Virus record (IMG/VR): IMGVR_UViG_3300044675_001822
Span: 1 to 25,370 of that record
Source of the DNA: a virus
Taxonomy: Duplodnaviria > Caudoviricetes
DNA length: 25,370 nt
Direction: 5' to 3' (one strand)
In this document: one piece after another, positions 2,433 through 14,303 of the stretch
Layout of the letters: each line of letters opens with the position of its first letter
Numbering within the stretch: the first letter of the stretch is position 1
Position numbers and translations under genes: made by a program
The notes under the pieces: generated by a model
Seen by the model: the letters and a program-made list of their open reading frames with translations, nothing else
Database searches by the model: none
Told to the model about the DNA's origin: nothing

Positions 2433-5400
2433 ATGACCGATTTAAAGCAATCATTAAGAGATTTTGTTGCAACAGCAAATAGTGGAAAGTACGCTGATGA
2501 GAATGTATTAATATCTAAATTCCCAGAATTAAAGGGGTACGACATTGGAGTGTTAAAGGATTTTGTTGCTACCTCTAATAGTGGGAAGTATCAAACAGAG
2601 GACGAGTTGTTTTCCAAGTTCCCCGAGTTTGCAGTAAAAAAAAAAGAATTGGTTTCTCCTTCTCAACAAAAAGCTCAACCTACTTCATTGGCTACTGGTG
2701 GGGCGATGGAAGGTGGGCCTTCGGAATCTTCTGTTCCTCTTTGGCTTCAAAATCAAGAACAGCCTAAACCAAAGGTAGCAGAGGAAACTTTGCCATTTAT
2801 GCCGGCCAAGCCTAAGCCCATGTCATTGGGTTCGGCAAGGGTTCCAGAAAAGGGGCCAATATTTGGCGTAGAGAATCCAGAGTTCAAGGAGCCAGAAAAG
2901 ATAGACAAGACATTGGCTAGGCTTCAGACCTCTTTGGTGGACACGGATGAGGAGCAGGCTACTGAAAAATTAAAGTATCTATTTGGTGATCTAGGCTTTA
3001 CATTTGATCAAGCCGGCGTTGGATATGATGCCATCACTGTAACGTCTCCAACCGGAAAGCAATTAGACTTGAGTTGGGATACGTTTACAAAGGGAGGTGA
3101 CGAAGCGGTATTGACCGAGCTGAAGGATTTCATATCAAAAGAAAGCAAGGCTCCGTCGAATGTCGACAGGCTACAAAAATATTACGACGATTCAAACAAG
3201 AAGTTCGTAGACCAAAGGGAGATAAACGAAACAATCGCTACTCTATCTAAAAAGTCTGACGACATTAATGGATTCATAAAAAGTTACAGCGTAAAAAGAG
3301 ATGTTCTTGAAAAAGAAAGTCAGTTATTGTCTGAAACACCAGAGAATCTTAGGGATGCAAACTGGGAGTCTAGGTACAATAATTTCTTAGAAAATGCGGA
3401 CAAACTTGAAGAGGAAAGACTTTCTGTTGTCGAATACCAAAACAACTTTGAAGTTAACAAGGCCGACATTAACAACGCTGTTGGCAAGTACATGCAGACA
3501 GAAGAGAAGATGGGATGGTGGGGTGGTCTTTTACTAAATGAATACCTAGGAGGAAAGGGTGGAGTAGTTTCATCTGCGACAGGTCTTTTTATAGATGGCA
3601 TTGTAAATATGATGCCAACCGAGTCATTGACTGGGGACTATCCAGCCAGATTTGTAGACGCTGCTAAAAAGCTTGGATACAAGGCTGAGGATTATAAGAA
3701 ATTAAAAACATCCTTATCTGAAGACCAAATTGAAGAAATCAACGACAAGGTAGACGACGAGTTAAAGAAGCAACTAAAGTATCAGTACGGTACACTAGAA
3801 ACAGCTCGCGAGGCAAGTGTTAAAACATTTGGATCAGACGAGGTTACAAAGCAATACGAAGAAAAGTTTAAGGAAGGCTTCTTAGGAGGCGCTATTGCCG
3901 GGCTTGCCGGTTCATTGCCTTCAATGCTAGGTCCTGCACCCGCTAGGGTTATCAGTATGTACTCAAGCATAACAGACAGCGTTAACGAGGAGATGGAGAA
4001 AGATCCTGAGCTAAGCAAGATATCTGAAACAGAGAAGAGCTTAGTTTCAGTTCCTATTGGTATTGTAAGTGCTATACTTGAAGAGTTTGGTTTGAGAAAC
4101 GTTGTGGCAAATAAGGGTGTTCTTAATAAGTTAGTGATGAGAATGCTTGGTAAGGTTGGACCAAAAACAACTTCAAGGACATTTGCAGAACTTGTTAGAA
4201 ACGATGTAGAAAGCATGGTTGCAAGAGGATTGCTAACAGTTGGTGGTGGTGCTTTGGCTGAGTTTGAAACAGGTGCACTTCAAGAGGCTTCTGAACAGAC
4301 CATCAAGGCAATATACAACGAAGTAAAGGGAAAAGATGTATTTAAGAATATAGCTCAAACACCATATGAATTTGTTGGGGACATGCTTTACGCAGGTGCT
4401 CAAGAGGCCGTGGGTGGTTTTGTTTTGGGGTCAATACCAGCCGTATCTGCTGCTTACAGAAAGCAGGGCTTTGAGGGCATGTCAGATGTTGACTTTGAAA
4501 AGTTCGAGAGAATAGCAAATGATGACAAGATAGAGTCAGCCTTTGTCACTTCATTAAAAACACAGGTCAATTCTGGAGAAATATCTGTTGCTGAGGCAAA
4601 AGAAACACTGAATGACTATAGAAAGTCGAGAGGCTTGTATAAACAATTGCCAGAGAGCTTGAATACAGAAAACAAGAAGAAGGCAATGAACTTGTTAAGA
4701 GAAAGACAGGGGATTGAACAAGAGATAAGTGGAAAAGACGAGGCTTTAATTAAAACACAAAAAAGTAGGATCCAAGAAATAAATGGATTACTAGAAAATA
4801 TATCTAAACCAGAAAACAATGCCGTTCAAGAGCAAACAACAAGTGAAGTACCTGTACAGTCAGGAACCGGAAGTGGCGAAAAAGTTCAGAAAGGACAGCC
4901 CAAAGCAGAACCTGAAGTCGTTACCGAAGAAGGTGCAGCCAAAGAAGAAGAAGTAAAGCAATACGTTGCAGACCTAGAAGAAACTAAACAGTCTAATCCA
5001 GAACAGTACTGGTCTGTTGACTCTGTAACAGAAGAAGCAGCTAAAGAAGGTACCGTAATCACAGATGAAGATGGGGGGATTGTGGTTTCTAAAGATGGCG
5101 ACATCAAGGGGTTATTCAAAAGGGCTACGTCAAAGGCTAAGGGAGTTGCTCAGAAGTTGCTTCAGAAAGCTGTTGAGGCTGGTGGTGTTAAGTTAGACAA
5201 CTTCGATAACTATCTTACTCCAGTTTACGAAAAGGCTGGTTTTAGAGTTGTATCTAGACTCCCTTTCAATGAGGAGTACGCTCCAGAAGGATGGAACAAA
5301 GAGAAGCACGGAACACCGGATGTCGTAGCAATGGTATACGATCCACAGAATAAACTAGATATTCAAGAACAGAAGTTCGAAGACTACGATGAGGCTATGG

Positions 5401-8400
5401 CATATCGCGATCAACTCGTGGAGCAATCGAAGTCTGAGTATCCAATGCAAAGCAACTTCGACCAGGCCTTGGCTAATTCAGCTCAAGCGCTTAACGTAGT
5501 AGCACCGGGATTAAAGGTGATAGTGGGGGAGAACATTGACGATGTACAGAACCAAATCGTAGAGGCACTAGCGCCATTAGTTGGCGAGAGACAGGCCGTA
5601 AAGGCAGCTGAAGAATTTGCCAAAGGCACCAAGGGTCAGACGATCTTTGTTGACGGCAAGCCGTTCGCTGTGGTATTTGACAAGACTACCGCAGATAGCC
5701 GCACCGCGGGACACGAGGCATGGGAGGTTATGCTGAACGATGCGTTCGGCAACGACCAAGCCAAGTTCAAGGAGTTTACAGCAGGCATCGACTCTCAACT
5801 AAGGGCTCAAGGATTTGGCGATATCGCTGATGCTTTGGACGCATTCGCTAGCCAGAAGGGCTACGAAGCCGTAAAATACTCGGAGTATATGGCTGAGCTT
5901 GGAGGTATGTTGGTAGAAGCTGGTTTCGGAAAGGGACCACTAACGGCTCAACAGAAGACATTACTACAGAAGATCGGTGACATCATCAACAAGTTTGCTG
6001 AGCTATTCACCGGCAAGAAGCAGTTCTTGGATCAGGCTACTCCAGAGGATATCCTTGGTTTCATGGTGACTATCTCTGAAAAGGTTGCTAAGGGTGAGGA
6101 CGTGTCAAGCTTCTTTAGAAAAGGAGAAAAGGCAAAGTCAACCGAAGGCGTGACATCTAGAAAGCAGGCAGAGAAAATATTCACAGGAGAAGAAAAGGTA
6201 CCTACATTTAAGAGCTTACCAGAGATAGCCAATTGGCTCGAGGGTTGGTCTAAGAAGAATAAAATATTTGCAAAAGATATAAAGGATGTATCTGATCAAG
6301 AATTTGTAAAGAAGCTTGAGTCTCATACATTAAAAGAGCTAGCGGCTTGGGATGGTGTTCGTGGTCAGGATTATGTAAGCTTTTATGTTGGAGACATCGT
6401 AGATCGCCTTAATCCTAAATTGCAAAAATTCGCAGAGGCTAGATACGGAAGGATGTTGACACCAGGTGAGGTAACTCTTTACCACGCTGTCAGCGGATTC
6501 GCATCTCCACAGGCAGATCCTATGTTTGACTCTAGCAAGGGTCTTGAGATATTCGACAAGTACATGAATGGTGGAAAGCCAGATGTAAATAAACTATCTG
6601 GTTATGCTGACAAGCAAGCTACTATATATGAATTAAACGACAAAGGAAAGAAAGTAGATACAGGTAAATTAAAGTTTGACAAAGAGGGAAATCCTATTTA
6701 CTCTCAAGTCTCAATGCACTACGCTGTACCTTCTTTGAATAAAATGAAGGCCATGATATCTCATTTTGAAGGAGATGTTGAAAAGGCTATGGAATGGATG
6801 ACATCTATCCACTCTTACGAAGAGATATCCGAAGTAATGGGTACTCCATTAAAAGGGGCCAAGGCTCTTACTCCTCACGAAAACTTGAGCAAGGAAGACG
6901 GTGGATTTGGTATCTTTGGATTTACTGGTGCCAAGTTGGGATCTTATATCCTTAACAGGGTCGGAGAGTACTCTACGGTTACCAAGGACATGTGGTATGC
7001 CAGAACAATGGCAAGACTAGTTGGCGAGCCATTGACAAAAGATGGCAAGGCCATGACAGACCCATGGGCAGCTGGCACTGTTGCTGGTGTGAAGAAAAGA
7101 AAACTTGCAGATCAGGCTTGGGAATCAGTTGCTAAGAAATTAAATATTAGCCCGTCTGACGTTCAAGAAAGAATGTGGGACTTCGAGAAAAGACTTTATG
7201 AAAAAATGGGTGCCATAGAGAAAGCATCTTATGCCTCAGAAGGATTCATGAAGACAGCAAAGAAGCTTGAGCCAGGACTTGACCTAGATACCAAGGTTGT
7301 GGAGTCACGCTCACAGAAAGCTTTTGATGAGTCTATAAAGAAAGAAGAAGCAAGTATAAAGCTGAAGTTTGACAAGAACGGTCAATTGTTGGCTCCAAAT
7401 GGTAAGCCAAGCAATCTCAATGAGGACTTGTCCAGATACACTAGAACAACTGTATTTAAAAACTGGTTTGGTGATTGGGAGAAAGATCCAAAGAACGCTA
7501 GTAAGGTTGTTGACGAAAATGGAGAGCCATTGGTTGTTTATCATGGAAGCCCTTACGGAGGCATTAAAACTTTCGATAGAAAAGAGTCTGCAAAAGTATC
7601 TTCTGGTTTAAAAGAGTTTGGAACGTACTTCACAACAAACAGGAATGTTGCTAACATCTATGCTTCTGAAGGAAAGATCAGCCAAGAAAAAATAAACGAG
7701 ATAGACGGGCAAATAAATAAGCTTCAAGAGGCACAAGACAATACTAGGAACAGTAGCGATTACTATAACTTTGAAAAAGAAATAGAAGCTCTTAAAAAGA
7801 ACAAGTCTCCAAAAGTATACGCTGCGTTTTTGAACTTGAAAAGTATAAAAGACTTCAACGCAGAGCAAAAGTCTTTCCCAGAAGCATGGAGAAATCTGAA
7901 AGTTGATGCTGGATATAAGACAGCTACAGACAGAGATGCCATGGACTTCTTGAGAGAGGGCAAGTTTGGTGTTAAAAAGGTTGATGGAATCAAGGCCTCT
8001 AACATAGTTGACATTGTTTCTCAAGGCAAAAAAGATGGCGACTTTGTTGGAGACGTGTATCTTGCTTTTGACTCCGCTCCAGACGCAATAAGAGTGGTAG
8101 AAACTCCAACTGTAACGTCACGCTCACAGAAGTCTGTTCCACCGGTGGTAGACGAGGTTCTTACCGATGACGGTAAGGGGAACTACCTTTTTGTTCACTA
8201 CTCTGATGAGAATAGAGACGTGATCAAGCCAATGTCAGGATCTAAGAGCAACTTCACAAGCCGTGAAGAGGTATCTGCGATATCGTCTGTTGGTGGTGTT
8301 GCAATGTACTACACAAAGTCCGGCCAGAAAGAGAGCGGTGTTGGGAATGTCCCACACACAGTTCTAGTTCCAAAGGACAAGGTATACTTCTACGGAAGCA

Positions 8401-11400
8401 CAGAAAAAGGAAAAGTATCTCACGATCCAGAAGGATTCGAGGAAGAGGCAAGACGCAGGTTCCAAGAATACAAGAACCGTGGAAACGAGGACAGGCCAAC
8501 AAAGTATGCGTTTGACGCAAACAACTCTGCAGCTTGGGTGACCAAGGTGGCCGCAGAGAACGGATACGATATGCTTGTTACCAACTGGGGAGGGCCAAAG
8601 AGCTACCGTGCACAGACAACCAAGGCATTAAAGCCAGAGGCTGAGTACACTGGTTTCAAGAAGCCAGAGCCCGTGGTATTTGAGGTGGGTGATGAGATTT
8701 TTGTAAGTGGAAACTACGCAAACATAACTGAAGTAAACGGAAGCATTGTAAGATATTCTGGAACAAACCAGTACGGCAACGCTGTGAGTGGAGTGTTTGA
8801 CTTGAACAGGAACAGCAATGCCATCATGATCGAGAAGGCTAAGCCGGTAGTCACCACGCGTGCACAAAGGGTAGATGTTAATGTCATCCCTGGATACGAG
8901 AGGTTTCTTGGTGTTATTGAGGGCATGATTGACAAGGGTATCAAAAGTGGTACGTCTTACAACAAAATTACCGCAAACGTAATTGAATACATACAAAGAG
9001 ACTCTGCTGTTTATGAAAGGGCAGACGATTCTCAGCGTGAGCAGATCATCCGCGACTTCAAGAAGATCAGAGGAGAGAAGTTTAAAGTAGCTCCGTCTGT
9101 GGCTAAAATACTAGGCCAGATCGAGGACATCAAAAAGGTAACAGTAAAAGAGAGCACAGCGCTGAAGGATCAGATCAAGTTGGAGGCCAAGGCAGCCAAG
9201 GACTCTGCAGCCTTTGTAAAGCAGCTCCGCATGGACATATCTGGTAGGTTGAAGTCTATGGTTGGCCGTGGTATGATGTCTGCTAGACAGGCAACTGCTA
9301 TTATCTCTCGCTACGACAAGATGAACATCTTGAACCCTGTGATGCGTGACCGTTTTGTTGACTACATGTCTAGGGTATTCCAAAGCGCCGAGTACATGGA
9401 CAAGATCAAGGAAGCGTCAAAGCTTAGAGCATCTATCAAGAAGGCCATGAAGTCACCAGCAAACCAAGCAGAGATTGCAAAGCTTGCTAAGGACTTTGGA
9501 GACATCGATCCGTCTCGTGTAGAAAATATTGACGACTATATCAATAACGCAACACAGATGCTAAACGCAGTGGCCAGAAAGACTGGAGACCCATTGATGC
9601 GTAGCCTTGTTAACGCTGCTGACATGGCATCTTATATTGAGACAGAAATCAAGTCACAGACAGAGCAGATCAAAAACGAGCTACTCGATAAGTATAAAGA
9701 ATTGGTCGATGCTGGCGTATTGTCAAGTGACATGACCATCAACGAAATCAAGAAGGTAATAGCCGCTATCGAGGAGAATGATAACGAGTCTGTAGCCAAG
9801 GAAGAGAAGGCGAAGGCCGCTGTCAAGGAAATGATGGCCGAGGTATCTCCATTGATTGTGCAGATCGTTAAGACCGGAGAGGATCCGTTTACAGGTGAGC
9901 CTATCGCACTTACGCAGGACGAGAAGAAGTCATTGATTGCATTGACCAAGATGGACACCGACAATCTTTCATTGTCAGAGGCATTGCAGGTGCTTGAGTA
10001 TGCCAACAACTTTGTTGCAAATGGCATCACCTCTGGTATCGATGGAATGGTAAGCCTTTACCAAGGTGGACTGAATGCCGGAGAGTTAGTTGATGATGGA
10101 ATCAAGTCTATCCCACTAAGCAAGTACTTCTCTGGGCTAGTTGGAAGAGTATGGGGCGAAGGATTCGCAACACTTCCAATGCTTAACAAGTTGTTATGGG
10201 GTAACACAAGGCGTGCTATAATGGTCTCTGAGAAGGCCGGAATCAATGGGGTGTCCAATGGTAAGGCCAAGGCCTTGAAGATGGTTGACAATGCTGTTAA
10301 ACAGTACGTAAAGCTATTCTCGAAGACCAAGGACTTCTTAGCAAGTGAGAATGTTGTCGAGCGTGGTGTATTTGCATTCATGTCTAGAAACGTGGTCGGC
10401 GATGAATTCCAGGCGCAAGACGAGTTTAATAGGCGCAAATCACTCATTAAGGAAACAATCCAGGCGCTATCTGACGTAGACAACAACACTGAATCAGAAA
10501 TCAAGAAGGGTGAAGTCATCCAAAAGGTGTACGACAAGGTCTTGAAAGATGCCAAGAATATTAATGACGTCAAGAAAAACGTAAGTCAGATCAACCAAGA
10601 TGCCGTAAACTGGTGGATAAACAAGTGGTCTGAGAACTTCGACCGTATCGACGAGGTATCTAGAAACGTGTACAACACACAGCTGTCTAGGGACATTGAC
10701 TTTACACCCGATAGGTTCCAACTAAAGGAGGCACCAACAGCTGTAGAGGAAGACTTTGAGTCTGGTTTCTTTGGAAACTTTGAGTACGTTGACACGTCTA
10801 AGTCTGGATCACTGAGAAAAAATAACCGTATTTCTAATCTTCCAAAGGACAAGAATGGTATTAAAACCCGTATAGTCAACCTTGACTTTGACGTGAATAA
10901 CGTTAACGCATTCACGAATGCAATGGTAGACGTAGAGACCGCTAGCTCTGTGATGCAGATGAAGGGTTTTGTGACATCTAAAAACTTCTCAAAGCTTTTC
11001 TCAAACAAGGAAGACAAGAATCTTTACAAGAAAAGACTGATCAAGTACGTAAATCGTGCCAAGGGTGGATCTTATGTAGACCAGAACGAGCTATCAAAGA
11101 TAAATAGAACAATTAATACCATTGCATCATTTGGTGTTGCCAAGGCATTGTTTAGTGTGTCACAGCCATTTAAGCAGTTCTTCCCTCCAATGATAAATAC
11201 TTTTGTTCAGACAGGTAGGTTTGACTTAAACAAGTTGCTGTACATGGGCGGAATGGGCTTTATCGACAGTTCTGGTTATCCTATTGCTAACCGTGGTGTT
11301 GCATCTCAGGGTGAACTTAAGTCTATCAACAGACAGTTGGTAGAGGCTGAGAAGAACTTAGCCATGCGTGGACTAGATGGTGTTGCGGAGTTTAGCAACA

Positions 11401-12374
11401 AGACTCTTGAAATTACACTTAAGAATCCGGACATTTTTGCTGCACGTGCCTCTTGGATTTCTTTTTACTTGAGCAAGTTGAAGAAGCAGGGTGTAAATAT
11501 CTCTGGAATAGATTTCAATACTCACGAGCTAAATAAAGATGCGGCTGACTACGCACAGGCGATGGTCGACTCTCAGCAGAACATCAGTGACACCGACATG
11601 CAGGGAGAGATCTTCGCTAGCAAGCAGCCAGCTACCGTGTTCTTGAGACGTGCTATCCTTCCGTTGATGACATTTACCTTGAACCAAAAGACTCGTATAT
11701 GGTCTGATGTAAGAACCCTTTCAAATGACGTGTCGTCAAAAGATGACAAGGTAGAGGCGGCCAAGTCTTTGTCTGGAGCATTGATCGAGTTAGTAGCGTT
11801 CCAGGGAATAGTACTTGCGTTCAAGGAGCTTTACAATGTAGTAGCAGCTGCCATCATGGGTGAAGATGAGGACGAAGAGGAAAAGAAGATTAGAAAGATG
11901 AGACAGTCTCAATCCACTGCTCAGGCATTCATGAAGGACTTCTTCTTGCCACCGATCCCGGGAATGGACATATTGGCTAGCAAGGGTGTCAATTACCTTC
12001 TCGACGAGACAGGCCTATCTGACGAGCTGCCATACAAGTGGTATGGTATCGAGGACGAGGAGCAGAAGTTTAGACTGTACGACAAGATGAACCAAGGTTA
12101 CTTGGACATGCTTGGAACGCAGGGTATTGCGGCAGAGAAGGCTCTTGAACTAATCGAATACTATGACGCTGCTATCGATGGTGAGTTCACCAAAGAGTAC
12201 AACGGCAATAAAGTAAAAAAGGCCCTCATGGAAGAGGACCTTGATATAGCTAGAATGAATGCTGTTATTATGACTGCTTATTATGGAGGAATATTGCCAT
12301 CAGACATGGCCAATATCGTCAACATAATGAACAAGAAGATTCAGAAGAGAGCAGAGCAGGTAGACGAGGACTAG
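2433..12374 (+). CDS. Giant (3313 aa) multidomain polyvalent protein, probable virion-packaged ejection protein carrying enzymatic cassettes
   Basis: Uninterrupted 9.9-kb ORF with A-rich start context (TAATAAAATATG). Gly/Ala-rich hydrophobic helices in the N-terminal region, central enzyme-like domains (listed separately), long helical C-terminal region. Confidence 0.85.
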   Translation: MTDLKQSLRDFVATANSGKYADENVLISKFPELKGYDIGVLKDFVATSNSGKYQTEDELFSKFPEFAVKKKELVSPSQQKAQPTSLATGGAMEGGPSESSVPLWLQNQEQPKPKVAEETLPFMPAKPKPMSLGSARVPEKGPIFGVENPEFKEPEKIDKTLARLQTSLVDTDEEQATEKLKYLFGDLGFTFDQAGVGYDAITVTSPTGKQLDLSWDTFTKGGDEAVLTELKDFISKESKAPSNVDRLQKYYDDSNKKFVDQREINETIATLSKKSDDINGFIKSYSVKRDVLEKESQLLSETPENLRDANWESRYNNFLENADKLEEERLSVVEYQNNFEVNKADINNAVGKYMQTEEKMGWWGGLLLNEYLGGKGGVVSSATGLFIDGIVNMMPTESLTGDYPARFVDAAKKLGYKAEDYKKLKTSLSEDQIEEINDKVDDELKKQLKYQYGTLETAREASVKTFGSDEVTKQYEEKFKEGFLGGAIAGLAGSLPSMLGPAPARVISMYSSITDSVNEEMEKDPELSKISETEKSLVSVPIGIVSAILEEFGLRNVVANKGVLNKLVMRMLGKVGPKTTSRTFAELVRNDVESMVARGLLTVGGGALAEFETGALQEASEQTIKAIYNEVKGKDVFKNIAQTPYEFVGDMLYAGAQEAVGGFVLGSIPAVSAAYRKQGFEGMSDVDFEKFERIANDDKIESAFVTSLKTQVNSGEISVAEAKETLNDYRKSRGLYKQLPESLNTENKKKAMNLLRERQGIEQEISGKDEALIKTQKSRIQEINGLLENISKPENNAVQEQTTSEVPVQSGTGSGEKVQKGQPKAEPEVVTEEGAAKEEEVKQYVADLEETKQSNPEQYWSVDSVTEEAAKEGTVITDEDGGIVVSKDGDIKGLFKRATSKAKGVAQKLLQKAVEAGGVKLDNFDNYLTPVYEKAGFRVVSRLPFNEEYAPEGWNKEKHGTPDVVAMVYDPQNKLDIQEQKFEDYDEAMAYRDQLVEQSKSEYPMQSNFDQALANSAQALNVVAPGLKVIVGENIDDVQNQIVEALAPLVGERQAVKAAEEFAKGTKGQTIFVDGKPFAVVFDKTTADSRTAGHEAWEVMLNDAFGNDQAKFKEFTAGIDSQLRAQGFGDIADALDAFASQKGYEAVKYSEYMAELGGMLVEAGFGKGPLTAQQKTLLQKIGDIINKFAELFTGKKQFLDQATPEDILGFMVTISEKVAKGEDVSSFFRKGEKAKSTEGVTSRKQAEKIFTGEEKVPTFKSLPEIANWLEGWSKKNKIFAKDIKDVSDQEFVKKLESHTLKELAAWDGVRGQDYVSFYVGDIVDRLNPKLQKFAEARYGRMLTPGEVTLYHAVSGFASPQADPMFDSSKGLEIFDKYMNGGKPDVNKLSGYADKQATIYELNDKGKKVDTGKLKFDKEGNPIYSQVSMHYAVPSLNKMKAMISHFEGDVEKAMEWMTSIHSYEEISEVMGTPLKGAKALTPHENLSKEDGGFGIFGFTGAKLGSYILNRVGEYSTVTKDMWYARTMARLVGEPLTKDGKAMTDPWAAGTVAGVKKRKLADQAWESVAKKLNISPSDVQERMWDFEKRLYEKMGAIEKASYASEGFMKTAKKLEPGLDLDTKVVESRSQKAFDESIKKEEASIKLKFDKNGQLLAPNGKPSNLNEDLSRYTRTTVFKNWFGDWEKDPKNASKVVDENGEPLVVYHGSPYGGIKTFDRKESAKVSSGLKEFGTYFTTNRNVANIYASEGKISQEKINEIDGQINKLQEAQDNTRNSSDYYNFEKEIEALKKNKSPKVYAAFLNLKSIKDFNAEQKSFPEAWRNLKVDAGYKTATDRDAMDFLREGKFGVKKVDGIKASNIVDIVSQGKKDGDFVGDVYLAFDSAPDAIRVVETPTVTSRSQKSVPPVVDEVLTDDGKGNYLFVHYSDENRDVIKPMSGSKSNFTSREEVSAISSVGGVAMYYTKSGQKESGVGNVPHTVLVPKDKVYFYGSTEKGKVSHDPEGFEEEARRRFQEYKNRGNEDRPTKYAFDANNSAAWVTKVAAENGYDMLVTNWGGPKSYRAQTTKALKPEAEYTGFKKPEPVVFEVGDEIFVSGNYANITEVNGSIVRYSGTNQYGNAVSGVFDLNRNSNAIMIEKAKPVVTTRAQRVDVNVIPGYERFLGVIEGMIDKGIKSGTSYNKITANVIEYIQRDSAVYERADDSQREQIIRDFKKIRGEKFKVAPSVAKILGQIEDIKKVTVKESTALKDQIKLEAKAAKDSAAFVKQLRMDISGRLKSMVGRGMMSARQATAIISRYDKMNILNPVMRDRFVDYMSRVFQSAEYMDKIKEASKLRASIKKAMKSPANQAEIAKLAKDFGDIDPSRVENIDDYINNATQMLNAVARKTGDPLMRSLVNAADMASYIETEIKSQTEQIKNELLDKYKELVDAGVLSSDMTINEIKKVIAAIEENDNESVAKEEKAKAAVKEMMAEVSPLIVQIVKTGEDPFTGEPIALTQDEKKSLIALTKMDTDNLSLSEALQVLEYANNFVANGITSGIDGMVSLYQGGLNAGELVDDGIKSIPLSKYFSGLVGRVWGEGFATLPMLNKLLWGNTRRAIMVSEKAGINGVSNGKAKALKMVDNAVKQYVKLFSKTKDFLASENVVERGVFAFMSRNVVGDEFQAQDEFNRRKSLIKETIQALSDVDNNTESEIKKGEVIQKVYDKVLKDAKNINDVKKNVSQINQDAVNWWINKWSENFDRIDEVSRNVYNTQLSRDIDFTPDRFQLKEAPTAVEEDFESGFFGNFEYVDTSKSGSLRKNNRISNLPKDKNGIKTRIVNLDFDVNNVNAFTNAMVDVETASSVMQMKGFVTSKNFSKLFSNKEDKNLYKKRLIKYVNRAKGGSYVDQNELSKINRTINTIASFGVAKALFSVSQPFKQFFPPMINTFVQTGRFDLNKLLYMGGMGFIDSSGYPIANRGVASQGELKSINRQLVEAEKNLAMRGLDGVAEFSNKTLEITLKNPDIFAARASWISFYLSKLKKQGVNISGIDFNTHELNKDAADYAQAMVDSQQNISDTDMQGEIFASKQPATVFLRRAILPLMTFTLNQKTRIWSDVRTLSNDVSSKDDKVEAAKSLSGALIELVAFQGIVLAFKELYNVVAAAIMGEDEDEEEKKIRKMRQSQSTAQAFMKDFFLPPIPGMDILASKGVNYLLDETGLSDELPYKWYGIEDEEQKFRLYDKMNQGYLDMLGTQGIAAEKALELIEYYDAAIDGEFTKEYNGNKVKKALMEEDLDIARMNAVIMTAYYGGILPSDMANIVNIMNKKIQKRAEQVDED
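2454..2630 (+). repeat. Tandem duplication of a 33-aa unit at the N-terminus of the giant protein
   Basis: LRDFVATANSGKYADENVLISKFPEL vs LKDFVATSNSGKYQTEDELFSKFPEF: 18/26 identical, period 99 nt. Confidence 0.9.
2636..2645 (+). other. A10 homopolymer, candidate transcriptional-slippage/frameshift site
   Basis: GTA AAA AAA AAA GAA (VKKKE) immediately after the tandem repeat. The run is seen directly; slippage is inferred. Confidence 0.5.
4819..4956 (+). CDS. Nested 45-aa basic protein overprinted in the +1 frame of the giant gene (MPFKSKQQVKYLYSQEPEVAKKFRKDSPKQNLKSLPKKVQPKKKK)
   Basis: ATG 4819-4821 to TAA 4954-4956 with A-rich upstream context (CTAAACCAGAAAACA-ATG, A at -3). It spans a low-complexity linker of the host ORF and resembles small phage proteins I recall beginning MPFKSxxQxxY. 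Confidence 0.7.
   Translation: MPFKSKQQVKYLYSQEPEVAKKFRKDSPKQNLKSLPKKVQPKKKK
5000..5350 (+). other. GNAT acetyltransferase-like domain within the giant protein (approximate bounds)
   Basis: DGDIKGLFK...AKGVAQKLLQKAVEAGG (acetyl-CoA-binding motif-A-like), LDNFD, LTPVYEKAGFRVV (motif B, YxxxGF). Confidence 0.75.
5460..6100 (+). other. Zincin-like metallopeptidase domain with altered motif (HEAWE instead of HExxH); approximate bounds
   Basis: Beta strands (KGQTIF, FAVVFD), then TAGHEAWEVML (His codon at 5712) and downstream SEYMAE helix, which is the zincin layout. Confidence 0.55.
6170..7260 (+). other. HhH DNA-glycosylase-like domain within the giant protein (approximate bounds)
   Basis: FY...ASPQ..., GAKLGSYILN (HhH-like GxK), VTKDMWYARTMARLVG (Asp followed by R, as in the HhH-GPD catalytic segment), SDVQERMWDFEK terminal helix. 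Confidence 0.55.
7304..8131 (+). repeat. 15-bp exact in-frame direct repeat GTCACGCTCACAGAA (7304-7318, 8117-8131) flanking the ART cassette
   Basis: Both copies encode SRSQK in the frame of the giant gene. Confidence 0.85.
7380..8100 (+). other. ADP-ribosyltransferase-like domain (ART-PolyVal type) within the giant protein
   Basis: LLAPNGKPSNL...FKNWFGDWE...SKVVDENGEPLVVYHGS...GTYFT...ANIYA...VYAAFLNLK...DGI...YLAF: the H-Y-x ART pattern typical of polyvalent proteins. Confidence 0.8.
8170..8640 (+). other. Second, divergent ART-like domain within the giant protein
   Basis: LFVHYS (strand-1 His), AMYYT (aromatic strand), ESGVG, VPKDKVY, AAENGYD: same motif order as H-Y-x ARTs but with little similarity to the first copy. 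Confidence 0.45.
8676..8820 (+). other. Small SH3/KOW-like beta-barrel domain
   Basis: FEVGDEIFVSGNYANITEVNGSIVRY pattern. Confidence 0.5.
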
Positions 12375-13483: not shown

Positions 13484-13655
13484 TTGTGTGGGTCGCTTGA
13501 ATATCCTTTAACAAAGGTATCATAGCCTCAACGATCTTCTTCACTTCCTTGTTTTCCTGGTCCATCATGGCCTCGTAGAGGTCTGTAGACAGGCTGTTCA
13601 ACTCATCCATAACCGAGTTGACGTAGTTAGATATGTTCTTGTGTTCTGGTTTCAT
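13470..13655 (-). CDS. Small helical hypothetical protein (61 aa, MKPEHKN...)
   Basis: ATG at 13655 with A-rich context (TTTAAATACC-ATG) preferred over TTG at 13688; overlaps the next gene by 14 nt. Confidence 0.7.
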   Translation of the reverse strand: MKPEHKNISNYVNSVMDELNSLSTDLYEAMMDQENKEVKKIVEAMIPLLKDIQATHTNEII

Positions 13656-13721
13656 GGTATTTAAAACAATGGGGCCGGAAAATTCCAAACCCCAATGTTA
13701 CCCAACGAGATATGAACAAGG

Positions 13722-13729
13722 CAAAGATA
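13722..13729 (-). promoter_or_regulatory. Bacteroidota sigma-A -7 element TATCTTTG
   Basis: Matches TAnnTTTG; intergenic, upstream of the 61-aa/phosphoesterase pair. No well-spaced -33 element seen. Confidence 0.65.
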
Positions 13730-13828
13730 ATCAGACTATACCCTGAGTTATTAACAAATTGTACGCAAACATTTGCCACTATTTCTATTTACTGGCAATT
13801 GTGAGTAATTCTGCCGCATTATAGTTCG

Positions 13829-13933
13829 TAGCCAAGGAGGGATTTGAACCCTCAGTTCCTAAGTCTATGGATTTCACATATTTCGGAGGCCCGTCTCTGG
13901 GGTAGCTCCGCTTCGGATATACGAAACTTGGCT
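13829..13933 (-). ncRNA. tRNA-like structured RNA with canonical acceptor stem and T-arm but non-canonical interior
   Basis: AGCCAAG/CTTGGCT acceptor stem plus A; T-arm GAGGG-TTCAAAT-CCCTC; three interior hairpins; 105 nt; no encoded CCA. Confidence 0.65.
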
Positions 13934-13935
13934 AT

Positions 13936-13983
13936 GAAAAAGCCCCACGAGCAGATCTTACGGTATGCAGGCGGGGACTTTCG
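13936..13983 (-). terminator. Terminator-like long hairpin with U-tail between a promoter and the tRNA-like element
   Basis: Minus strand: AAAGTCCCCGC-CTGCATACCGTAAGATCTGCTC-GTGGGGCTTTTT. Confidence 0.45.
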
Positions 13984-14016
13984 GTCTAAGGATTCTATCC
14001 AGAGAGTGGTTCGATG

Positions 14017-14046
14017 CAAATATATGCACAAAGTAGCGAAAAGCAA
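14017..14046 (-). promoter_or_regulatory. Bacteroidota sigma-A promoter (TTG-19 nt-TATATTTG)
   Basis: -7 element at 14024-14017, TTG at 14046-14044; no credible CDS directly downstream, only structured RNA. Confidence 0.65.
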
Positions 14047-14068
14047 TACCTTGTGCAAAATCCTTATT

Positions 14069-14148
14069 TGCTATTTTTGTGACTTTTAACCATTATATTG
14101 TGCAATTTGTGCTATTTTTGGCACATTTAACCATTATAATGTGCAATT
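14069..14148. repeat. Tandem 39-bp direct repeat (14069-14107, 14110-14148)
   Basis: TGCTATTTTTGtgACtTTTAACCATTATAtTGTGCAATT vs TGCTATTTTTGgcACaTTTAACCATTATAaTGTGCAATT; 35/39 identical. Confidence 0.9.
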
Positions 14149-14303
14149 ATTGTACAATAATGTCCTTTAAGACACCCAAAACTATGTCAAAATGAGCTTT
14201 ATATGACCACTTGTTCCGCCAAAACTCGAGTTTTTGTCAAATAATGGCGGGTTATACGGACAATAACCGAGTAATGTCCAGTTTATTTACATAAAAACTG
14301 GAC
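14121..14303. repeat. Cluster of distinct short palindromes/inverted repeats
   Basis: GCACATT/AATGTGC 14121-14144; ATTATTGTACAATAAT 14146-14161; AAAACTCGAGTTTT 14221-14234; CCGCCA/TGGCGG 14216-14250; GGTTAT/ATAACC 14250-14268; GTCCAGTTT/AAACTGGAC 14276-14303. Confidence 0.8.

Follow-up and report, generated by a model that had tools for sequence, protein, structure and literature searches.

The locus raises the question of whether a 45-codon open reading frame lying out of frame inside a giant phage gene is a gene in its own right and, if so, how it came to lie there and what its product does. The window analysed here is a 25,370-nt stretch of DNA, positions 1 to 25,370 of the IMG/VR record IMGVR_UViG_3300044675_001822 (Caudoviricetes), a linear 25-kb virus record that is about 40% complete. 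Its structural operon lies on the + strand and its replication genes on the - strand, and the gene order agrees with that of Elemovirus of Flavobacterium. The window DNA is present in lake metagenomes; no RNA dataset was found among the listed sources holding it. The operon contains three genes (1-315; 317-1054, 'virion structural protein', PHROG 13764; and 1056-2426; all +) upstream of a giant gene (2433-12374, +) of 3313 aa. The giant is likely a virion ejection or polyvalent protein, judging from its size, its position at the end of the structural operon, its domain content, and a 245-aa block common with the giant 'structural protein' of Elemovirus. Its conserved N-terminal domain (residues about 497-782; 3921-4778, +), which served as the bait for fetching relatives independently of the nested ORF, is followed by an acidic linker (residues 796-841; 4818-4955, +) and by a domain matching PHROG 2563 (residues 839-967; 4947-5333, +), for which weak PDB rows (E 0.22-0.81) suggest an acetyltransferase-like reading. 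An ART-PolyVal domain (PF18760, residues 1694-1767; 7512-7733, +; E 1.6e-10) lies further downstream.

The nested ORF (4819-4956, +) is in the +1 frame relative to the giant ORF. Its translation gave exactly the 45 aa, followed by a TAA stop, that a preliminary description of this DNA had reported, and it covers the low-complexity linker with which it had been said to coincide. The peptide is basic (15 K+R, 3 D+E; net charge +12), and the linker residues read across it in the host frame are acidic (4 K+R, 10 D+E). An in-frame TAG (4792-4794, +) closes the +1 frame 8 codons upstream of the nested ATG, so the ORF has its own start. It lies wholly within another gene, on the same strand and with its own start and stop, which is the layout of an embedded gene. 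Gene callers had been expected to miss it, and indeed only the host gene is annotated over the copy in MW202828.1 and in the 14 listed of 68 Elemovirus records. The giant contains four ATG-led +1 ORFs of at least 45 aa, and the open frame by itself is unremarkable.

The homology search proposed in the preliminary description returned relatives of the nested peptide (26 of 29 candidates at E<=0.01), and 42 cluster representatives matched it at E<=0.001. The free-standing small phage proteins with the same motif, which had been mentioned there, exist. Alignment A1 has 27 members, of which 23 matched PHROG 1375 (function unknown) at E<=1 (best 1.5e-6), and the matching members are 49-79% identical to the window's peptide. 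The window's own peptide, a 45-aa biased query of low power, matched no PHROG family at E<=0.01 or E<=1. No Pfam or NCBIfam family matched the nested peptide, and a Pfam scan of 73 members gave weak scattered rows, the best being DUF1391 in four of them. From these sequence matches, the nested gene is best filed as a putative PHROG 1375-like gene in an unusual arrangement; the assignment runs via close homologues, and the library gives for PHROG 1375 neither a function nor anything on nesting. About 7300 IMG/VR stretches (an estimate from 6 of 64 parts) carry one of the family motifs. The family occurs in phages of Bacteroidota, cyanobacteria, and others with a conserved core, and Met1, Gln8, and Pro17 are invariant across 73 diverse aligned copies. 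In prokaryote genomes, one confirmed locus was obtained from one narrow pattern. A Streptomyces phage gene beside a holin gene gave a weak match (E 0.1) and was not counted as a member. In scattered giants, among them those of cultured elemo phages, the usual type gives way to a subtype bearing two conserved cysteines (L081, L180, L183, L186, L187, L192, L196, L223, L231, and L247).

Among the 80 best of 377 confirmed IMG/VR loci, 30 copies lay in +1 within giant ORFs, 19 were nested close to the beginning of a gene of 378-430 aa, and 31 were free-standing (26 plainly and 5 with short overlaps). The gene of 378-430 aa is likely a scaffold gene because it lies between the portal gene and PHROG 13704; the label is positional, with the addition of a 0.80 Atlas lead, and the 'capsid protein' label of the gene next to it is likewise positional, no PDB match having been found for that gene. 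The median net charge of the peptide is +11 to +13 in the free, giant-nested, and scaffold-nested classes alike. Unannotated free-standing copies were found in the cyanophages P-RSP2 and S-CBS2. The N-terminal domain of the window's giant was matched by 14 of 32 giant hosts and not by the remaining 18, so the nested gene is carried by several kinds of giant. In the cultured phage elemoF (MT497071.1), the nested copy lies at giant codon about 1220, with its ATG at position 52379 of the record. Nested copies were present in 68 Elemovirus records, from phages on Flavobacterium sp. BAL314, and because these phages are cultured, translation and function are directly testable. In one genome (G018:C1:48955-49092; L248, L250), a free-standing copy starts one base past the stop of a 2837-aa giant, possibly an intermediate state.

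Relatives were also fetched through host-frame domains that do not overlap the nested ORF. The ORF was carried, always in +1, by 58 of 80 giant loci, and an ATG-led copy, again always in +1, by 34 of 80 scaffold-like loci, both shares leaning high because the alignments that seeded the searches came mostly (A4, 4 of 5 rows) or wholly (A3) from carriers. The giant count was identical with a broader profile, and one of the misses (L179) ends before the site; two more scaffold-like loci held a remnant without ATG. The preliminary description had made its proposal depend on conservation of the ORF in related giants, and the 58 loci provide it.

Selection was compared between frames by pN/pS over codons 2-24, with pairs binned by flank identity and pairs with an insertion before Pro17 excluded; the values are uncorrected for multiple hits, and the pairs are related rather than independent. 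In giants (bins of 213, 54, and 22 pairs, the last being the closest), the small frame gave 0.21, 0.18, and 0.11 in the overlap, the host frame 1.35, 1.28, and 5.98 in the same codons, and the flanking host domain 0.41, 0.23, and 0.14. The frame-specific check called for at the outset thus found the small frame constrained (0.11-0.21) and the host frame not (1.28-5.98). In the closest giant pairs, differences at the three host codon positions were 0.085/0.044/0.264 in the flank versus 0.14/0.036/0.018 in the overlap, the most variable position being the third of the host codon in the flank and the third of the small gene's codon in the overlap. Scaffold-nested copies pointed in the same direction more weakly (small frame 0.51, 0.36, and 0.30 versus host frame 1.05, 1.17, and 0.66), so the host frame is not free there. 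Free-standing copies had a small-frame pN/pS of 0.16, as in the giant-nested ones. Contigs of four lake runs pile up over 4811-4951; among the variants listed within this interval, 7 of 8 fall at the small frame's third position and none of 8 at the host's third, and 22 of the 29 outside it fall at the host's third position. The codon of Phe3 is TTT in 1 of 121 nested ORFs versus 13 of 33 free ones; TTT before AAR would create TAA in the host frame, which is kept open by this codon choice. Free-standing copies have stops in the host-equivalent frame. Homology, frame-specific selection, and conservation in giants fetched through the host frame go beyond what chance yields, and ORF 4819-4956 is almost certainly a real protein-coding gene. 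With regard to its stop codon, TGA was found in 0 of 120 nested ORFs having a stop and in 16 of 33 free ORFs.

A relative of the window's giant (L220) shares both the N-terminal domain and the one after the linker but has no nested ORF, and its linker is 41 residues shorter; the linker is therefore mostly the nested gene. Together with the selection by frame, this largely upholds the earlier proposal that the linker sequence is a by-product of a conserved nested gene. The term 'overprinted', used in the same proposal, fits badly, as it is the small frame that has the wider distribution and the host frame that is free of constraint. De novo overprinted viral genes are similar in their same-strand internal overlap and disordered partner, as described in the accessible part of PMC8227390. 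By the criterion given there, according to which the frame of widest distribution is ancestral, the small gene is the older one and the linker the new reading, in contrast to a de novo overprint. A young and narrowly distributed nested frame, as expected of such an overprint, was not observed, the gene being free in 31 of the 80 best viral loci and in two cyanophages, and L220 lacking the linker. The small frame is very probably older than the linker, and an older gene parked in linkers is likely, rather than a de novo overprint. From a peptide tree of 43 columns, the direction or number of nestings was not recoverable, and a single origin per host gene was not rejected (p-AU 0.49 and 0.84).

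The likely initiation region of the nested gene (4799-4818, +) has A at -13, -12, -6, and -3, no Shine-Dalgarno sequence, and a folding energy of -2.8 kcal/mol for -30..+20. Adenines at -3, -6, -12, and -13 and weak structure favour initiation in Flavobacterium, according to the part of PMC6847099 that was available. These positions hold A in 70, 67, 76, and 71% (-3/-6/-12/-13) of 66 giant-nested contexts versus 36-43% of 6205 other +1 ATGs, and in 80, 75, 92, and 78% of 40 scaffold-nested contexts; median start folding was -1.75 kcal/mol in giant-nested copies versus -6.4 kcal/mol at other +1 ATGs. On a matrix built from real starts, the median scores were -0.2 for nested starts, -6.5 for the background, and 6.1 for real genes, and the 95th percentile of the background was exceeded by 38% of giant-nested, 5% of scaffold-nested, and 84% of real starts. 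Since nested starts lie above the background but below real genes on this matrix, the gene may be only modestly expressed, or its start context may be limited by the host frame. The good A-rich Bacteroidota start claimed in the preliminary description stands as to all four adenines and weak folding, but the window's start ranks at only the 91st percentile among the other +1 ATGs, short of what real starts typically reach. A purine-rich Shine-Dalgarno-like run precedes the nested ATG in 6 of 14 loci picked by eye (L011, L013, L035, L041, L050, and L053); the neighbouring genes of these six loci have such runs only in part. The nested gene is assumed to be read from the late operon mRNA. The search for an internal sigma-70-like promoter gave 2 sites versus 1.4 by chance, and a Bacteroidota -7 pattern gave 33 matches, none of them between 3182 and 6520. 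Six of these 33 fall within 13484-14302, where some 800 bases separating the exonuclease gene from the reductase gene contain no long ORF.

AlphaFold2 run on the family alignment gave a confident small fold (pLDDT 90.2, pTM 0.60), predicted to comprise a helix at residues 6-15, a kink at Pro17, a second helix at 17-26, and then a loop with an LP motif and a basic, Lys-rich tail. Fold searches gave no useful match (Foldseek against PDB, 1 row at E 6.4; VIA-align, best Z 2.1), short helical models searching poorly, and BFVD returned uncharacterised or unnamed phage proteins only, none at E<=0.001. The missing fold matches do not demonstrate a new fold. The ESM Atlas gave unnamed clusters at 0.94-0.96 and DUF3008 at 0.86, the latter as a lead only. 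A PDB sequence search with alignment A5 gave 18 rows, and its top three alignments were rejected as summed 4-5 bit matches to designed propeller repeats.

Taken as a whole, the locus may well, at about an even chance, be explained as a conserved 45-codon gene in the +1 frame of the giant's linker. It is likely to have been an older late gene, originally free-standing, that was inserted as an in-frame cassette; it is probably translated from an internal start of its own and would encode a small, basic, head-internal DNA-binding protein. Ribosomes would initiate internally, at the nested ATG of the late mRNA, Bacteroidota permitting a start without Shine-Dalgarno. The -1 reading of a Lys-rich, A-rich gene would yield a Glu/Gln-rich disordered linker, which the host protein would tolerate if Phe3 is TTC and no TAA arises. 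Recombination would add, drop, and swap the cassette between relatives, the two-helix module would retain the protein within the prohead, and packaged DNA would be neutralised by the Lys-rich tail, the protein being non-essential like the T4 internal proteins. The role of a non-essential head-internal protein binding DNA via its basic tail has, taken by itself, a probability slightly under one half; the preliminary description had named a basic DNA-binding core protein as one possible product. Both host genes sit in the structural operon. Of the 31 free loci, 23 were scanned, with 1-5 hand-picked neighbouring genes each; a terminase, portal, capsid, or tail gene was among them in 15 loci, and no structural gene in the other 8.

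Most carriers have one copy of the gene, which is dispensable and distributed patchily over the host trees. Among the carrier records, 37 of 38 have a single match, and the remaining one has a weak second match (E 0.003). When the giant lacks the gene near its N-terminal domain, 21 of 22 records have no copy anywhere; compensation elsewhere in the genome, seen in 1 of 22 only, was accordingly rejected as an explanation, and 7 of 8 near-complete genomes with such a giant have no copy at all. The presence of the gene changes 7 times on the giant tree, 5 of these changes being required by strong branches, and 15 times on the scaffold tree, gain and loss being indistinguishable in these counts. 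Unlike subtypes in the sister giants L222 and L231 point to swapping between relatives.

A different role would be that of a head-targeting tag, in which the two-helix module binds the scaffold or capsid interior and brings fused cargo in, as does the T4 capsid targeting sequence, the stand-alone form being tag plus short basic cargo. The family module was found in 125 longer proteins and is N-terminal in 121 of them, with unrelated partners: 85 form one family, and the others have lysozyme, InPase, ligase, DnaJ-like, or ferritin-like domains. The InPase and lysozyme partners match virion-protein families, and an N-terminal match to PHROG 1375 was obtained in 6 of 30 fusion proteins. A short GG-ending motif, possibly a protease site, follows helix 2 in 91 of the 121 (1.4 expected in shuffles). 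In the largest fusion family, the module ends after helix 2 without the basic tail, a form equally compatible with a tag and with a DNA binder. Tags of T4 are N-terminal, are cleaved, and carry diverse proteins into the head, as reported in the available part of PMC9026906. However, the 85 proteins of one family make up most of the fusions, and the N-terminal position is also explained by stop loss in a free-standing gene. The module moreover occurs in phages with very different head genes (P-RSP2, S-CBS2, and Elemovirus), for which a DNA ligand is simpler than a capsid partner, and the tag role is considered rather unlikely. In the cluster of 85 proteins (P0082-P0189), the two-helix module is directly followed by the GG-ending motif, which may recur 1-3 times, and these are possibly processed head polyproteins.

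The gene could also encode a late or injected regulator or counter-defence peptide acting on the host by binding ribosomes, RNA polymerase, or a defence protein. Its patchy, dispensable, and swapped distribution is that of accessory conflict genes, the giant bears an ART-PolyVal domain, and T4 IPI, described in the consulted part of PMC9026906 as a head protein inhibiting a restriction enzyme, is a precedent. Counter-defence genes change fast, however, and the core of this family is under strong purifying selection across phages of Bacteroidota, cyanobacteria, and others; a host-acting role, which would itself be compatible with head packaging, is of similarly low probability.

The preliminary description had proposed, as its second possibility, a chaperone co-expressed with the ejection protein. 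In this reading the product would be a dedicated partner of the giant, nested within it to match expression, by the logic of Rz/Rz1. In most giants of the window's group, the gene does directly follow the conserved N-terminal domain, and a basic protein within an acidic host would suit such a pairing. Yet the gene is not tied to the giant: it occurs alone, in the unrelated scaffold-like gene, and in giants with non-matching N-terminal parts (18 of 32), and since 7 of 8 near-complete genomes with a gene-free giant have no copy (21 of 22 such records overall), a dedicated chaperone is argued against and is very improbable.

Half of a programmed frameshift, leading the giant into +1 (a short giant with a basic tail) or the small ORF into the giant frame (the module fused to effector domains), is very improbable. 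The window's ORF has one X_XXY_YYZ heptamer (codon 27), N-terminal fusions occur elsewhere, and one database protein (P0029) ends in the MPFKS peptide. Such heptamers are, however, not enriched (10 of 77 giant-nested and 1 of 44 scaffold-nested versus 9 of 33 free ORFs), which makes this reading unlikely; the +1 frame is closed a median of 5 codons before the ATG, and Met1 is invariant in the 73 aligned copies. P0029 (1075 aa) is of the giant type with the MPFKS peptide in frame at its end, and may reflect a natural frameshift or an assembly error.

That no protein is made, the stretch being kept for a host-frame motif or a DNA/RNA element with the +1 ORF as its shadow, can be dismissed almost entirely: acidic linkers do readily give Lys-rich open +1 frames, such as the four in the window's giant, but this reading is largely refuted by the variation at the small frame's synonymous positions and by the stops of free-standing copies in the host-equivalent frame, and the confident fold from the alignment also speaks against it.

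Textbook examples of embedded phage genes are a few pairs with products that cooperate or have arisen de novo. In phiX174, the genes E and B are read out of frame within others, E within a scaffold gene, and J is a small basic protein binding DNA inside the capsid; J is essential and not nested, and the phage has ssDNA. No homology to J was found in sequence or fold searches, in which short helical models perform poorly. A comparable arrangement is lambda Rz1 in Rz, which is likewise wholly embedded in +1 and missed by gene callers, and spanin genes also occur overlapped or separated (PMC6139136, accessible part). The halves of a spanin form one complex and always travel together, and in the same part of that source no spanin family mixes embedded with separated members; the PHROG 1375-like family mixes both, and its nested gene has two unrelated hosts, is dispensable, and is swapped. 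Two-component spanins combine a Cys-bearing lipoprotein signal in the embedded gene with a membrane anchor in the host; the nested peptide is without Cys or a hydrophobic stretch, and its host is a 3313-aa multidomain protein, unlike a spanin. The T4 proteins IPI-III and the capsid targeting sequence, as presented in the part of PMC9026906 at hand, are similarly small, non-essential, and head-linked, with an N-terminal module common to unlike proteins. No sequence or fold link between them and the nested protein was found, and the T4 tag has 10 residues versus about 27-40 in the MPFKS module. No description of the nested gene was found in the literature searched, from which subscription journals were mostly absent; the part of PMC7077304 at our disposal does not mention elemo phages.

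The gene is an old and widespread one for which unrelated host genes serve as addresses and whose sequence provides their linkers. Its free copies, the copy right after a giant's stop, and the copies nested in giants and in scaffold-like genes form a natural series for how overlaps arise, and 'low-complexity linkers' of giant virion proteins can hide genes missed by annotation. We tentatively suggest, as a possibility somewhat more doubtful than not, that acidic linkers of head-internal proteins are parking lots for small basic late genes, in which at least four unrelated families (MPFKS, NKKKY-type, FSRR-ending, and the type of L215/L216) in +1 generate the linker as a side effect and, as recombination cassettes, are acquired, lost, and exchanged, a reverse overprinting, and that the MPFKS module is a general head-loading tag of aquatic phages.

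The 80 scaffold-like loci comprised 32 with the MPFKS family only, 16 with the NKKKY family only, 2 with both, 4 with a third type, and 26 with none. The NKKKY family comprises basic ORFs of 36-48 aa, each lying in +1 within the acidic N-terminus of the scaffold-like gene, with pN/pS of 0.33 in its own frame versus 1.46 in the host frame (23 sequences) and weak matches to PHROG 6310/2701/18092 (small unknown PHROGs). Its loci were L126, L129, L133, L134, L136-L138, L140, L142, L145, L146, L148, L150, L155, L156, and L163 (e.g., L137:1369-1488), and L115, L118, L028, L031, L033, L066, and L068 were grouped as having the NKKKY motif in +1 together with the MPFKS gene. Further basic +1 ORFs occupy the same place in scaffold-like genes (L119:1756-1884, L122:1744-1881, L160/L161:1744-1884, and L116:1690-1881); four end in FSRR, one is Cys-rich, and a PHROG scan of two of them gave no match. 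The fourth type is a 44-aa basic +1 ORF with an A-rich start, located in the acidic linker of giants without the MPFKS gene (L215:5394-5525 and L216:5394-5525).
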